64,000 nt of DNA. Origin: a virus. Both the position numbers and the translations under genes were made by a program. Numbering within the stretch: position 1 is the stretch's first letter; the number at the start of each line of letters is the position of its first letter. This document shows, piece by piece, positions 5,075-19,834 of this stretch. The notes beneath the pieces were generated by a model. That model was given only the letters and a program-made list of their open reading frames with translations, did no database searches and had not been told where the DNA came from. Where the stretch lies: UHGV virus genome UHGV-1351772. The stretch is one strand, 5' to 3'.

Positions 5075-5120
5075 CTCTATATTCTCCTAATCATTAAAAT
5101 AGCCGCAGTTGTAAAAAAGA

Positions 5121-7132: not shown

Positions 7133-7202
7133 TTAAGCTGTTCCTCAATTAATTTTGTTTACGTGTGCATAATTAGACACGAAACCGTAAAAATAAATAC
7201 TC

Positions 7203-7226
7203 CCTCTCTCCGTTTGGAGAGAGGGT
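7203..7226 (-). terminator. rho-independent terminator (near-identical stem to 6155-6178)
   Basis: ccctctctcc gttt ggagagaggg, U-run on minus strand. Confidence 0.65.
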
Positions 7227-7230
7227 AAGT

Positions 7231-7737
7231 TTACAGTACGTTTTCTTCTCGATCGTCTACTAAAATCGAAGTAATCACATAACGCGCTAAACGACTGCGT
7301 GCTTCTTCCGTTTCTTCTTCAGAAGGTAACTGTTCGCCCGCAGGTGCACACAACGTTAGCCCAGACTCACGAAGCTGCTCGGTATAGTCTTCCACAGCGC
7401 TGTCGAACGTACCACGAATACCTGCTACCGCATCCATAATTTCGTCGTTCGGAATAATGGATTCTTTTAGCACGGCGTGAGCATCCGTAGGCTCCACCAT
7501 TTGCAGGTTCTGTTCTACCAACAACGCCTGTTTCGCTAAGCTGTCGGTGATAAAGCAAGATAGAATCTTTTCGAAATCGTCTAACGAGAATTCGGTGTCT
7601 TCAGATGCCCCGGTAATCAATTGCCCGTAGCGATTAAAGAATTCTTTACAACGTGTTTCGTAGTCAGCTTCTAAGTCGCGAACACCGAGATCAAAATCGT
7701 GCTGCTCCAGCTGATTAAAATCCAGAGTCTCTTTCAT
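7231..7737 (-). CDS. acidic hypothetical protein
   Basis: ORF track; strongly D/E-rich. Confidence 0.45.
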   Translation of the reverse strand: MKETLDFNQLEQHDFDLGVRDLEADYETRCKEFFNRYGQLITGASEDTEFSLDDFEKILSCFITDSLAKQALLVEQNLQMVEPTDAHAVLKESIIPNDEIMDAVAGIRGTFDSAVEDYTEQLRESGLTLCAPAGEQLPSEEETEEARSRLARYVITSILVDDREENVL

Positions 7738-7775
7738 CTCTAAGTCTCCAGTTAAGAGGTCATATTACCTGCTGG

Positions 7776-8003
7776 TTAGAGTGCCAACGTTAACCCGGTA
7801 TGGGTTTCTACTGAACCAACACCGTCACGCGCTTTTGCTTTGGCGATGAGTTTGTCAATCACGCGCTGATGGCTACGAGTAATGACTTTACCTGGATAAC
7901 CGATAATCAGCACGTTCTCAGTATTAATAACCGCCGAGAATTCGTTATCACCTGCGACGTAAGTAATCTTTTTGTCTTTGGTTACAATACGTTTGATTTC
8001 CAT
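7776..8003 (-). CDS. small hypothetical protein
   Basis: ORF track. Confidence 0.35.
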   Translation of the reverse strand: MEIKRIVTKDKKITYVAGDNEFSAVINTENVLIIGYPGKVITRSHQRVIDKLIAKAKARDGVGSVETHTGLTLAL

Positions 8004-8012
8004 TCAATGTCC

Positions 8013-8786
8013 TTAAAAGATAAAATGGCCAGTTAATGCTTCTACTTCAACACCAGGCATCGCCGGTGGTGCTGAGTATGGAAAAGTAAGACGCACGGCT
8101 GCACCCTTTAAATACGCAATACGGCAGTATGTGGTTAAGAGTGCATTCCCGTAAGTACAGTCGTTATAGAAGAAACCTTCGGTGGCAAACGTCTTTTCGT
8201 TGATTTTCGAATAGACTAAGATACCTTCAACTTTACCGTCTTTACGACAGCACAGCCCTTCGGCAGCCCCAATCGCTAACAAACCCAGGCAGTACGTATC
8301 CAAGCTGACATTAGCCACCTTAGGAATCGTAAACGTTTCTTCTAATGTTAGAGATTCAATATCATCTACATCAGGTAAATCGGTACGAACTTCAGGTTTT
8401 TCAGTAAACGTCAGCTCATAGTCGATAGACGTCGGTTGCATACTCAAAAACGCCATTAACTGATCGCGACGTTTTAGGTCGTTGGCAGGGTAGGTGATAT
8501 CAAACACCTCCACACTTAACAAACGTTTGAGTTGTGCGAAATTGATGTTCTTCTTCGCAAACACAACGATTGCTGACATGTAGAAAATCTTACCGTCAGT
8601 GCGGCCGGAGAAGATTCCTTGTAGCTGATTCGTGTTCGAAAGAATAATAAAGGTCGGATCTTCAGATTCGCGAATGACGTCCTTTTCCAGTAACCCTTTC
8701 CGTACACGGGTTAGCGAAACCATTTTGCCATCCACACCAATTGCTAAATGGTCATTACGATAATCGTGGATATCCACTATGCGCAT
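8013..8786 (-). CDS. hypothetical protein, translationally coupled to dam
   Basis: ORF track; ATGA overlap with dam stop at 8786. Confidence 0.45.
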   Translation of the reverse strand: MRIVDIHDYRNDHLAIGVDGKMVSLTRVRKGLLEKDVIRESEDPTFIILSNTNQLQGIFSGRTDGKIFYMSAIVVFAKKNINFAQLKRLLSVEVFDITYPANDLKRRDQLMAFLSMQPTSIDYELTFTEKPEVRTDLPDVDDIESLTLEETFTIPKVANVSLDTYCLGLLAIGAAEGLCCRKDGKVEGILVYSKINEKTFATEGFFYNDCTYGNALLTTYCRIAYLKGAAVRLTFPYSAPPAMPGVEVEALTGHFIF

Positions 8787-9601
8787 TAGAGCACTCCCAG
8801 TAATTCAGTCACCGTTTTCCGAGCGGCACCAGACGCACCCATATAGCGACCAACCTCAATACTGCGCCACTCAAAACCGTAATAAATTTCTCGGGTGAGT
8901 AGGGTGTCTGCATTTGACAGCACGACGCTGTTGCCACGTTCCACCTGCTGCTGTAGTAACTTGGCTAATTCCCGATGATCCGTTTGTGAGAATTCTTTAC
9001 GGTGGTATTGCGCATGTTTCGCGGTATCCGATAACGGAATATAAGGAGGATCAGCATAAATCACGGCATCCTCAGGTGTCCGCGCTAAGACAGAACGAAA
9101 GTCCTCACAAACAATTTCCAGATACTCAACTTCTGTGCAACGTTTAGCCCAATCCCGAATTTCTTCTAATGGATAATAAACGCCGTTCGGGTAACGTCCA
9201 AACGGAACATTGAACCCACCACTACTGTTATAGCGACACATCCCATTATAACCATGACGCATTAAGTATAAAAACATCGCGGCACGTTCAACCTCGGTCA
9301 TCGTTTTACCGCTATTAAACAGTTCACGACGTTCCATATACTTTACAGTGGCATTACCGTCTAAGAACAACGGTTGCGATGCAGCGATCAGTTCTTCAGG
9401 CTGTTCACGCGCAACACAAAGTAAGCGTATCAAATCGGGGTTAGAATCCGATAGAATATACCGGCTGTAATTCGTATTTAGGAAAACAGACCCTGCGCCC
9501 ACAAACGGTTCTACAAAGGTTGTACGTTTAGGTAAGACCTTCTGTAATTCACCCAAAACGCGTGTTTTCCCACCCATCCATTTAATTATCGGTTTCCGCA
9601 T
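8786..9601 (-). CDS. dam: DNA adenine methyltransferase (Dam family)
   Basis: N-terminus IIKWMGGK...FVEPFVGAGSV (AdoMet site) and DPPY catalytic motif, ~270 aa. Confidence 0.85.
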   Translation of the reverse strand: MRKPIIKWMGGKTRVLGELQKVLPKRTTFVEPFVGAGSVFLNTNYSRYILSDSNPDLIRLLCVAREQPEELIAASQPLFLDGNATVKYMERRELFNSGKTMTEVERAAMFLYLMRHGYNGMCRYNSSGGFNVPFGRYPNGVYYPLEEIRDWAKRCTEVEYLEIVCEDFRSVLARTPEDAVIYADPPYIPLSDTAKHAQYHRKEFSQTDHRELAKLLQQQVERGNSVVLSNADTLLTREIYYGFEWRSIEVGRYMGASGAARKTVTELLGVL

Positions 9602-10580
9602 TATATCCGCCTTGTAACGATGACACTTCGTCGACTAACACCAATTTGACATGATTTTTCTGACGCTCCCAACTGACGACGTTTTCGTCACGCACTAAAA
9701 CAAATTCGTATTCGTAGGGGCGAAATTTAAATAATTCGACGGCCAGGTGCCTGAATGCAGGGTTGTTATTGAAACACCCTATCTCTAATGGTGCCGCTGT
9801 TGTCGATGCAATTTGTAGGGCACGATACAACAAAGTCCGTCCGATACCACGACCCCGATGTGTCTCACTTACCGCAATGGCTTTTAATTCACATTCGTTA
9901 AGATTACGCAATTTAACTTGCACCGCGCCCACAATATCGTTGCCGTCCATCCAAACGTAAGTATGGTGGTTGACATGACGTACTAACTCCACCAACGTTT
10001 CGACTTGTGGCATGATTTGACGTGAGCGACTCACAGGGTCAGCGTTGATGTTTTCAACGACACTCGTACCCAAAAGCAACATAAGCTGTTCGCGTTGTGT
10101 GGCGGTTAACTCTTTATAAAAATCACCGGAGATGTTCTTCACGTTTGTTGGTAGAGCGATATCCAACAACGAGCGTGTACCTAAACGATACGTAGTGTGG
10201 GTGTGTCTAAATCCTAAGTCATTAAGCTCAGCGATTTCTTCTACACCACTGGCGATTCGATTAAGGTACGTAAAACCGGTATAGTCGAGTACCAGTAGCA
10301 GGTTCAGTTTGTTCAAACAACCCGGTACAATTTCATGCATGTACAAGCAGTGTAACGTTGGGTCGCCGTAAATGTGTTTTGTGATGATAAACCCTTGGAT
10401 TGTTTTTCCTTTTTGTAAAGAGAACGTATTCAGTTCACTATTGCACAACGCCTCACGAATCACCGCGCCGTTAGGGCCCGATAAACATGCCTGAAGTTGA
10501 GGGTTGCGAATATCTCTACGTGCTAACCGACCTACTGTTAAATCCGTGGCGGTATGTTTTATAATCTTCATAAAAGCCAT
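9582..10580 (-). CDS. GNAT-family acetyltransferase with ~170 aa N-terminal extension
   Basis: C-terminal half carries acetyl-CoA motif AIAVSETHRGRGIGRTLL; AAGGAG RBS 8 nt upstream of ATG 10580. Confidence 0.55.
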   Translation of the reverse strand: MAFMKIIKHTATDLTVGRLARRDIRNPQLQACLSGPNGAVIREALCNSELNTFSLQKGKTIQGFIITKHIYGDPTLHCLYMHEIVPGCLNKLNLLLVLDYTGFTYLNRIASGVEEIAELNDLGFRHTHTTYRLGTRSLLDIALPTNVKNISGDFYKELTATQREQLMLLLGTSVVENINADPVSRSRQIMPQVETLVELVRHVNHHTYVWMDGNDIVGAVQVKLRNLNECELKAIAVSETHRGRGIGRTLLYRALQIASTTAAPLEIGCFNNNPAFRHLAVELFKFRPYEYEFVLVRDENVVSWERQKNHVKLVLVDEVSSLQGGYNAETDN

Positions 10581-10644
10581 GTTAATTACTCCTTAAAAGG
10601 TCGTCTCAAAACAATACGCTAAAGTTGTAAAAACAAAAAAGAAA

Positions 10645-10662
10645 GGGGAACCGAAGTTCCCC
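10645..10662 (-). terminator. rho-independent terminator
   Basis: ggggaac cgaa gttcccc, preceded on plus by A-run. Confidence 0.6.
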
Positions 10663-10674
10663 AATTATTAAACA

Positions 10675-11346
10675 TCATGCAGAAGGGGCAGAGTTTGTAA
10701 AAGCAAGATTGGGTGTCAAGCCAGCTTTCCCTAATTTTTCATACAGGTAGTTGAAAAATCTGAGATGGGCATCGTAGTGGCCAGCCGCTACTCGCTGGCC
10801 GTAAACTTCTACCAAGTCAGGCGAAAACTTAATATGGCAGTTTTGTCTAGAGAACAAAGGTTGTTGCACCCCACCCTTAATTAAGATGCGATACTTTTTA
10901 CCGTCGTCTGTTACGGCGTGAAGAATATTTGTACTGAAATGGAAATAGATAGAAGGGTTAAAACACAACCAGGTGGCGGCATTGATTAGCAAGTCAGCTA
11001 ACTTAACAGCGATTTTGTCAAGTTCAGGCCCTTCAAACTTATGCATTAACCGCAGAAGAATTTCAGTAATAACCGTGCCTGTAAGTAATTTGTCTCTATT
11101 GAGACCAGGTGCAACCGCCAAAACATCACCATTATAAGTGCAGACAAGTGTGAATAAGTTGAAAGGCTGGTCTTGATAAAGTTCGAAAACCAGGTCAGTA
11201 TACGGGCTAAAAGTTAAGAATTTCACCCCGAGTATTTCATTAACGCAGGGTAAAAGCTCAACTTTCACAGGCGGTTGTGCTTCGTTAACTTTAGTCTCGT
11301 TCTTTACAGTTTCTTCAATTACGGTTTTACCAATTTTCGGTGGCAT
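10675..11346 (-). CDS. hypothetical protein
   Basis: ORF track. Confidence 0.45.
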   Translation of the reverse strand: MPPKIGKTVIEETVKNETKVNEAQPPVKVELLPCVNEILGVKFLTFSPYTDLVFELYQDQPFNLFTLVCTYNGDVLAVAPGLNRDKLLTGTVITEILLRLMHKFEGPELDKIAVKLADLLINAATWLCFNPSIYFHFSTNILHAVTDDGKKYRILIKGGVQQPLFSRQNCHIKFSPDLVEVYGQRVAAGHYDAHLRFFNYLYEKLGKAGLTPNLAFTNSAPSA

Positions 11347-14807: not shown

Positions 14808-15275
14808 TTAGATTTCCTTTATCATTTCCCTGCATTCGGTACGGAATCCCATTTTCTCATACAAGGAGATAGCTTTAACGTTGTTGTCTAACACATCCAG
14901 ACTCATCCAACCACAACCTTTGGACTTTCCGTATTCACGAACTTTGTCCATAAGCGCACGTCCTACCCCTTGAGAACGTGCTTCGGGAATCACATAGTAG
15001 TTCCCAATATAAACAAATGTGTCCTTCGAGCAAGAACCTATTGAGAACGTCATGAAACCCAGAAGTTGTTCGTTGTCATCCACGGCACACGCACAGAGAT
15101 AATCTTGGGGCCAAATCTCTTCTAAGTGTTCAATTGGGTTGAACGTGTCGCGACCGGTTAACTGACTAATACGCACTTTCTCTTCTGCGAACAACATGTT
15201 GTGCAGTTTGAGTACCTGGTCGCCGTATAACTTTCCGTATTTACTGTCGGGTTTGAGAATAATAGTGATACGCAT
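14808..15275 (-). CDS. GNAT-family acetyltransferase
   Basis: VIPEARSQGVGRALMDKV acetyl-CoA-binding motif, 155 aa. Confidence 0.6.
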   Translation of the reverse strand: MRITIILKPDSKYGKLYGDQVLKLHNMLFAEEKVRISQLTGRDTFNPIEHLEEIWPQDYLCACAVDDNEQLLGFMTFSIGSCSKDTFVYIGNYYVIPEARSQGVGRALMDKVREYGKSKGCGWMSLDVLDNNVKAISLYEKMGFRTECREMIKEI

Positions 15276-19774: not shown

Positions 19775-19834
19775 AATAGCACTCCTTCTTTTAAGTCTCA
19801 CAGTATGTTTAAAAATTGTAAAAATAAAAAGAAG

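Follow-up and report, generated by a model that had tools for sequence, protein, structure and literature searches.

In the 64,000-nucleotide (nt) stretch of the virus genome UHGV-1351772 analyzed here (hereafter the window), five successive genes on the minus strand, running from 10580 to 7231 and including a GCN5-related N-acetyltransferase (GNAT) and a Dam-family DNA adenine methyltransferase, very probably form a single transcription unit. We read this unit, with a probability of roughly 0.6, as a short early-type operon in the non-structural gene block, made up of accessory genes that function independently, and the block looks like an inherited gene neighbourhood rather than a new three-part modification machine. 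The reading is based on the finding that GNAT and Dam are separable, as seen in the phages phiEaH2 and Derbicus, and that the two therefore represent independent accessory functions. The genes of the unit and the two cassettes that bound it are the following, in the direction of transcription:

10600 to 10662, minus strand: upstream cassette consisting of a terminator-like hairpin, GGGGAACTTCGGTTCCCC (10662-10645), a T-run, TTTTTAC (10633-10627) and a TTGT..TGAGA box
9582 to 10580, minus strand: 332-amino-acid (aa) tandem-GNAT protein with an acetyl-CoA motif in the C-domain and a degenerate N-domain
8786 to 9601, minus strand: 271-aa N6-adenine DNA methyltransferase of the Dam family with a predicted preference for GATC
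8013 to 8786, minus strand: 257-aa protein with a predicted tandem GNAT fold and no conserved acetyl-CoA-binding motif, from the phage-only family phrog_9941
7776 to 8003, minus strand: conserved 75-aa basic protein, isoelectric point (pI) 9.6 (phrog_7896, E=2.4e-20)
7231 to 7737, minus strand: gene closing the unit, for a strongly acidic 168-aa protein of pI 4.1 (phrog_8221, E=6.5e-56)
7181 to 7225, minus strand: downstream cassette consisting of a terminator-like hairpin, CCCTCTCTCC-AAAC-GGAGAGAGGG (7225-7202), followed by TTTTTAC (7193-7187)

The listing of open reading frames (ORFs) contains four successive minus-strand ORFs in 7776-10580, at the coordinates given by a first-pass annotation of this DNA, and the plus-strand ORFs of the same region are short and nested within the minus-strand genes. 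The four are genuine, conserved genes: SPN3US, Caitlin and Wellington have orthologues of each, and the GNAT, Dam, 257-aa and 75-aa proteins were assigned to PHROG families 8663, 56, 9941 and 7896, respectively. The 257-aa and 75-aa proteins were without a match in Pfam, and whole-window scans detected neither Rfam families nor tRNAs anywhere in the window. The 75-aa ORF that the first-pass annotation had placed after the 257-aa gene was found at 8003..7776. The annotation was thus right about the ORFs of 7776-10580, while its end of the unit at 7776 has to be moved: the 168-aa gene (7737..7231) is included because no hairpin with a promoter motif occurs before 7225-7202.

A terminator scan detected a GC hairpin with a TTCG loop followed by a T-run at 10662-10645 on the minus strand, and the minus-strand hairpin at 7225-7202 has a 10-bp stem with seven GC pairs. 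TTTTTAC directly follows each of these two hairpins, and the combination of hairpin, T-run and TTTTTAC was also found at 19818 and 13231 on the minus strand. In an alignment of the upstream regions of eight phages from five genera, TTTTTAC was invariant and a TTGTGA-like box downstream of it was conserved, and the proteins encoded beside this conserved cassette are only 23-30% identical across the aligned phages. The cassette is also present in phiEaH2 and Asesino, where it is located immediately 5' of Dam. TTTTTAC is enriched between genes, since 6 of its 19 hits in the window are intergenic although only 8% of the window is intergenic. The 10-mer TTTTTACAAC was not enriched window-wide (15 hits against 11.6 expected), the enrichment being confined to the shorter intergenic TTTTTAC, and a scan for sigma-70 promoters likewise showed no enrichment (11 sites against 11.6 expected). 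In jumbo phages that encode their own RNA polymerases (RNAPs), a conserved AT-rich motif 5' of early operons is the promoter of the virion RNAP (PMC7598289). Based on this precedent and on the conservation of the cassette, the five genes probably constitute an early-type operon, and the recurring cassettes are probably pairs of a terminator and an early promoter. The cassette at 10600..10662 would then combine the end of the upstream unit with the probable promoter of the Dam unit, and that at 7181..7225 is the end of the Dam unit and the start of the next one. On the minus strand, TTTTTAC is located at 19818, 13231, 10627 and 7187, in each case after a hairpin, and additionally at 5111, the cassettes splitting the genes into short units. 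The terminator-like hairpins at 7225-7202 and 6178-6155 (minus strand) share an identical 10-bp stem (CCCTCTCTCC/GGAGAGAGGG) and differ in their loops.

The phage represents a new lineage within the known SPN3US-like, phiKZ-type jumbo phages of enterobacteria. A megablast search with 7700-10700 against 50,697 phage records (GenBank phage records, INPHARED release of August 2025) gave no match, and relatives were found at the protein level only. The proteins of the window match SPN3US-like jumbo phages, with a major capsid protein ~80% identical to the capsids of Erskinevirus and Seoulvirus, and phiKZ-type polymerase and structural families are present. Close relatives occur as ~225-kb contigs in the metagenome assemblies of IMG/VR and Logan and in one assembly that bears a Shigella sonnei label, and among the protein-cluster labels of the relatives one names Shigella sonnei and another Escherichia coli. 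GenBank records of Seoulvirus, Machinavirus and Wellingtonvirus already show this gene order, and SPN3US_0104-0109 are annotated as a GNAT, a DNA adenine methylase and four hypothetical proteins. The order is GNAT, Dam, a protein of 26x aa, extra genes of ~250-270 aa in some cases, a protein of ~90 aa and one of ~160 aa, and it was observed in SPN3US gp104-109, Caitlin gp115-121, Wellington gp132-137, pEa_SNUABM_29, pEa_SNUABM_11 and the metagenomic loci L013 and L022. The window carries the SPN3US-type gp104-gp109 block, having its orthologues in the same order and orientation and with the upstream cassette; pairwise BLASTP identities to SPN3US are 30% for GNAT, 67.5% for Dam (gp105), 24% for the 257-aa protein, 42% for the 75-aa protein (gp108) and 43% for the 168-aa protein. 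Orthologous proteins, orientation and the upstream hairpin with TTTTTAC are shared with the blocks of SPN3US, Caitlin, Wellington and phiEaH2. The window differs from SPN3US-type blocks in being without the second ~270-aa gene (gp107 family) and in its overlapping junctions, where SPN3US has gaps of 9-30 nt, whereas the phiEaH2 block differs from it in being without GNAT.

The distribution of the genes across lineages shows GNAT and Dam apart in both directions. Erskinevirus is closest to the window by Dam (71-72% identity) and capsid (80%), yet it is without the GNAT; the gene order there is thymidylate kinase, a helix-turn-helix protein, a hypothetical protein, the hairpin/TTTTTAC cassette, Dam, the 257-aa family, the gp107 family and the homologues of the 75-aa and 168-aa proteins. 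In a six-frame profile search of the whole phiEaH2 genome, we identified Dam (7e-134), the 257-aa family (6e-47), the gp107 family (9e-89) and the 75-aa and 168-aa proteins. The profile of the 332-aa GNAT gave nothing in this genome at E<=1, and seven single members of the GNAT family gave nothing at E<=0.01. The whole genome of Derbicus, on the other hand, contains no Dam, no member of the 257-aa family and no member of the gp107 family. Its thymidylate kinase is followed by the GNAT gp102 (7.6e-13 to the 332-aa profile), the GNAT gp103 (8.7e-10, with HRLKGIG) and gp104, after which comes gp105, the homologue of the 75-aa protein; the homologue of the 168-aa protein is located 8 kb further on. 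These distributions are most simply accounted for by an ancestor with a series of tandem-GNAT paralogues and the 75-aa gene at its end, Dam having entered this array in one branch or having been lost in Derbicusvirus. The three Derbicus genes gp102-gp104 (L024:44664-47395) encode proteins of ~290-320 aa, two of them motif-bearing tandem GNATs, and in Derbicusvirus a nucleotide pyrophosphohydrolase and an AAA ATPase are found ahead of the homologue of the 168-aa protein.

Tight gene junctions, in which the first-pass annotation had seen a hint that GNAT, Dam and the unknown protein form a module, are ordinary for this genome. The reported 20-nt overlap of GNAT and Dam is seen at 9582-9601, whereas the junction between Dam and the 257-aa gene (CTCTAATGCGC) is not the ATGA described but TAATG, with an overlap of 1 nt. 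In a crude gene call of the window comprising 62 same-strand neighbouring pairs, 22 junctions overlap (nine by 1 nt and five by 4 nt), and 28 of the 62 measure 10 nt or less. The overlaps of the window are not kept in the relatives, where the spacing is as follows:

SPN3US: GNAT to Dam, 30-nt gap; Dam to next gene, 9-nt gap
Wellington: GNAT to Dam, 79-nt gap; Dam to next gene, 9-nt gap
Caitlin: GNAT to Dam, 8-nt gap; Dam to next gene, 4-nt overlap

Judged by its sequence, Dam is an orthodox orphan methyltransferase with a predicted specificity for GATC. It matches PF02086, the D12 N6-adenine methyltransferases (E=7.8e-57, 193.3 bits, cut-off 22), and TIGR00571 (252.6 bits, cut-off 114.85), and in NCBIfam it scores under the cut-off of the chromosomal-dam equivalog NF008152 (256.7 bits vs 441), differing from chromosomal E. 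coli dam in this and in being phage-encoded. Over its whole length the protein can be aligned with E. coli Dam (2g1p, E=1e-64; BLASTP identity 42.9%), including the S-adenosylmethionine motif I (FxGxG), present as EPFVGAGSVF, and motif IV, present as YADPPY. In the 2g1p alignment, the equivalents of E. coli K9, Y119, N120, R124 and P134 are kept and L122 is replaced by M; in the published Dam-DNA structures these six positions are the GATC-recognition residues of E. coli Dam, and T4 Dam likewise has M at the L122 position. No nuclease domains were detected in the neighbours of Dam by Pfam, PHROGs or NCBIfam. The protein thus shares with E. coli Dam and T4 Dam the D12 class, a full-length alignment, the motifs and GATC contacts and the lack of an adjacent restriction gene, and differs from them in its location inside a GNAT array and in that its GATC specificity is a prediction. 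Because the phage Dams are 50-72% identical to each other and 39-43% identical to E. coli Dam, Dam has been vertically inherited within the phage group. A host-derived Dam replacing an older phage Dam was also considered and was ruled out, the phage Dams being mutually closer than they are to the E. coli enzyme.

The 332-aa protein is, with an intact acetyl-CoA site in its C-domain, most likely an active N-acetyltransferase. Residues 198-280 match Pfam Acetyltransf_1 (PF00583; E=1.7e-12, 48.1 bits, cut-off 20.7), and PF13508 (35.6 bits, cut-off 27) and PF13673 (24.7 bits, cut-off 23.6) are matched as well, the GNAT matches all lying within residues 194-280; beyond such generic GNAT families, neither the 332-aa nor the 257-aa protein matched any family in Pfam or NCBIfam. 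An AlphaFold2 model built from an 11-sequence alignment, with a predicted local distance difference test (pLDDT) score of 81, contains the full GNAT topology twice (residues 14-133 and 147-296). The assignment as a GNAT in the first-pass annotation is thereby borne out by Pfam, and what had been described as an N-terminal extension is in the model a whole degenerate second GNAT domain. The acetyl-CoA motif A (Q/R-x-x-G-x-G/A) is found in the C-domain as R242-G-R-G245-I-G247, and the N-domain is without it. Within the family, I246, G247 and R248 show little or no variation, and the Machinavirus members have R at motif position 4. Among the best structural matches are MshD, WecD, glucosamine N-acetyltransferase, the polyamine acetyltransferase DpA and AAC(6'), and the protein N-acetyltransferases NatD, RimI and Naa match equally well; the target is most likely a host or phage protein or a small amine. 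Two GNAT domains per chain are also found in MshD (1ozp), VipF (6wqb), MAB_4324 (7q3a), N-myristoyltransferases and FemAB, and like these tandem-GNAT enzymes the 332-aa protein has a single canonical acyl-CoA site. The likeness between these enzymes and the proteins of the window is one of fold, from which sequence kinship or a common substrate does not follow.

The GNAT also evolves differently from its neighbours. Among the relatives in the clade of the window, protein identity averages 85-95% at this region, and GNAT and the gene directly upstream of the unit (p223) stand out from this level. The GNAT of L013 shares 42% aa identity with that of the window, compared with 82% for Dam and 90% for the 257-aa protein. 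When the two alleles were compared (window 9700-10580, minus strand, and L013:1227-2207), the first ~110 residues were fairly conserved and the catalytic half was divergent. Because GNAT is diverging fast and its allele has been replaced, a role in host interaction is suggested; an exchangeable, fast-evolving allele of this kind would also argue against co-adaptation with Dam. In being a fast-evolving phage GNAT of an early-type operon, the protein resembles phiKMV Rac and further phage GNATs for which acetylation of host proteins has been proposed. The resemblance is one of type, Rac having one GNAT domain where the 332-aa protein is a tandem GNAT.

The 257-aa protein gave no match in Pfam, NCBIfam or the sequences of the PDB, even at relaxed E-values. 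This agrees with the absence of recognised motifs reported in the first-pass annotation, and the label unknown given there can now be replaced, as structure prediction yields a tandem GNAT fold. Word-indexed protein searches returned close relatives only. In an exhaustive HMMER search of 1.84 billion representative proteins, the family comprised nine clusters at 50% identity, all members being 257-276 aa long and originating from the SPN3US-like phage group. The AlphaFold2 model contains two GNAT-like units, and in a Foldseek search against BFVD the best match after its own family was Derbicus gp103, labelled "GCN5-related N-acetyltransferase" (2.4e-11), followed by the 317-aa GNAT of Kwan, an orthologue of the 332-aa protein (8.9e-11), a 256-aa gp107-family protein of phiEaH2 (9.7e-9), and N-myristoyltransferases of giant viruses and FemAB. 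Motif A (Q/R-x-x-G-x-G/A) is not conserved in either domain in the family alignment. The C-domain reads C-T-Y-G-N-A after the predicted beta4 in the window and L-E-Y-A-Q-E or similar in the relatives, only Y212 is invariant in the motif-A region, and the loop of the N-domain is without glycine. Because motif A is not conserved, we file the protein as a GNAT-fold protein and not as an acetyltransferase; as modelled, it is probably a tandem GNAT of paralogue-like character that has diverged, no longer binds acetyl-CoA in the canonical way and is non-catalytic or atypical. The gp107 family is probably tandem GNAT-fold too, and Pfam gave no match to the extra ~250-270-aa genes of the relatives. 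An hhalign comparison of the 332-aa and 257-aa families was not significant, and neither were profile-profile comparisons of the gp107 family with the 257-aa family or of Derbicus gp103/gp104 with the 257-aa and gp107 families. Common descent of the GNAT-fold families is for this reason drawn from fold and position only.

GATC is strongly depleted in all genomes and loci for which the ratio of observed to expected sites was calculated:

Window: 0.50
SPN3US locus: 0.37
phiEaH2 genome: 0.30
Caitlin and Wellington loci: 0.19
Derbicus genome: 0.21

In Derbicus, GATC is the most depleted palindromic tetramer. There is long-standing selection against GATC in this phage group, with or without a phage Dam. 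Such selection fits the established idea that GATC is a liability for the fast-replicating DNA of an enterobacterial phage, through MutH or GATC-specific restriction. In the mechanism that we propose, Dam would protect the phage by methylating its DNA at N6 of the adenine in GATC. The lineage probably replicates inside a chimallin shell, and host Dam may not reach the phage DNA there; SPN3US has the chimallin homologue gp244 (PMC9365700), and our literature search found nothing on Dam in nucleus-forming phages. Exclusion of host Dam from a phage nucleus would be a plausible reason for a phage to carry a copy of its own. The phage Dam may thus keep the leftover GATC sites methylated and insensitive to MboI/DpnII-type restriction or MutH, and the same selective pressure is indicated by the strong depletion of GATC throughout the phage group. 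The 332-aa tandem GNAT would acetylate a protein of the host or the phage, or else a small amine; the 257-aa protein is read as a diverged tandem GNAT, probably a non-catalytic one.

Several observations weigh against an operon of independent accessory genes as set out here. The Dam-less Derbicus is about equally depleted in GATC, so that Dam is clearly not the sole answer to the pressure on this site. The model of the 257-aa protein is of moderate confidence, with a pLDDT of 67 (~80 in the N-half, weaker in the C-domain). In the main texts of the SPN3US papers that were searched, gp104-gp109, a methylase and an acetyltransferase are unmentioned. Dependence or independence of Dam and the 257-aa protein cannot be read from synteny because all genomes are collinear. 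Furthermore, Dam and the 257-aa family are adjacent wherever either occurs and are absent together from Derbicus, which is the pattern of a functional pair.

This last pattern carries the first alternative, a two-component unit in which the 257-aa protein, a degenerate GNAT, is a non-catalytic partner that regulates, targets or re-specifies Dam. Such a partner could recruit Dam to replicating phage DNA, aid its import into the phage nucleus or act on methylated DNA. Adjacency was found in the clade of the window, Seoulvirus, Machinavirus, Wellingtonvirus, Erskinevirus and the metagenomic loci L020 and L022, so that even the most divergent members of the 257-aa family (those of L020 and L022) lie directly 3' of Dam, and the distance from the Dam stop to the start of the 257-aa gene is -4 to +10 nt in every lineage found. 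In addition, the 257-aa family was found nowhere else among the representative proteins searched, and in Erskinevirus the cassette directly precedes Dam, so that Dam and the 257-aa family head the operon. The carriers are, however, collinear descendants of one ancestor, and a one-time event in its history may explain why the two genes are neighbours. Conservation amounts to 50-72% for Dam and to 21-24% for the 257-aa family, which is not the co-evolution of a tight complex, and E. coli-type Dam works without partner proteins. The positional counterpart in Derbicus, gp103, is moreover a motif-bearing GNAT in a phage without Dam, suggesting that the 257-aa family derives from the GNAT array rather than from an accessory protein of Dam. 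We regard a two-component unit as unlikely. Its strictest form, an obligate pair of Dam and a 257-aa pseudo-acetyltransferase restricted to SPN3US-like phages, in which the partner would determine the place, timing or DNA substrate of Dam action in the infected cell, or would add or read a modification at the methylated adenine, is more doubtful still.

It is similarly unlikely that the tandem GNATs acetylate small molecules such as polyamines, amino sugars or antibiotics, in the manner of MshD, WecD, SpeG and AAC enzymes, and serve nucleotide or metabolite remodelling with no role in defence, Dam being unrelated cargo; this estimate concerns the target of GNAT and not the architecture of the unit. 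The structural matches to MshD, WecD, glucosamine N-acetyltransferase, DpA and AAC(6') fit small substrates, as does the position of the array directly after thymidylate kinase in Derbicus. These phages also encode a separate small GNAT, and its homologues from Caitlin and phiEaH2 acetylate spermidine in E. coli, whereas the SPN3US protein did not (PMC9992855). The GNAT fold does not discriminate between substrates, however, NatD, RimI and Naa giving equal scores, and fast divergence (23-30% against 50-72% for Dam) together with allele replacement fits a host-interaction target better.

The weakest alternative is the one that the first-pass annotation had raised, a multi-component machine of GNAT, Dam and the 257-aa protein that modifies DNA or protein for anti-defence or epigenetic ends, its ratios fixed by translational coupling and, in one version, combining methylation with a Mom-like acylation. 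The single terminator-bounded unit with overlapping junctions in the window and the two acyltransferase-fold proteins flanking a DNA methylase are in its favour, as is the precedent of phage Mu Mom, a GNAT-superfamily enzyme that modifies the N6 of adenine in DNA and whose expression depends on Dam methylation (PMC7824862). Mom is, by description, likewise an acyltransferase-fold protein tied to Dam biology in a phage; in Mu, however, the Dam concerned is that of the host and has a regulatory part, with no place in the operon, and here GNAT and Dam are phyletically independent. Such a machine is very improbable, given that GNAT and Dam are found apart both ways, that GNAT alleles swap independently of Dam as in L013, that overlaps are common genome-wide and unconserved (a 79-nt gap in Wellington), that both GNAT-fold proteins match generic GNAT families at most, and that Dam, 43% identical to E. 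coli Dam, is of the orthodox stand-alone type.

An operon of independent accessory genes is thus the reading that we prefer. The gene block itself is already known from GenBank records of several genera, and Dam is conventional; new are the fold of phrog_9941, the position of Dam within a tandem-GNAT array, the test of GNAT and Dam by presence and absence, and the conserved terminator-promoter cassette. As found, the block is of little consequence, since published phage genomes already hold and partly annotate it. For annotation, phrog_9941, and probably the gp107 family too, can be described as tandem GNAT-fold, and the 332-aa "GNAT with extension" as a tandem GNAT. Should the pairing of Dam with the 257-aa protein be functional, it would be the first case of a DNA methyltransferase with a pseudo-GNAT as its partner, an accessory subunit of a new kind in an otherwise classic orphan methylase, and would offer a handle on how nucleus-forming phages methylate their own DNA.

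Of the remaining genes at the locus, that for the 75-aa protein has homologues in phiEaH2 and Derbicus in addition to SPN3US gp108. The 168-aa protein is 37-58% identical across all six lineages, the Dam-less Derbicusvirus included, and contains 39 D+E against 14 K+R residues, a composition with which it could be a DNA-mimic-type protein. The 223-aa gene p223 (10675-11346, minus strand), which matched nothing in Pfam or PHROGs, shares 38-39% aa identity with its counterparts in L008, L009 and L013, where the flanking genes share 82-94%; it is absent from Erskinevirus and looks like a swapped allele, possibly of an arms-race gene. The separate small GNAT is a 155-aa single-domain protein encoded at 14808-15275 on the minus strand and is 48% identical to SPN3US YP_009153389.

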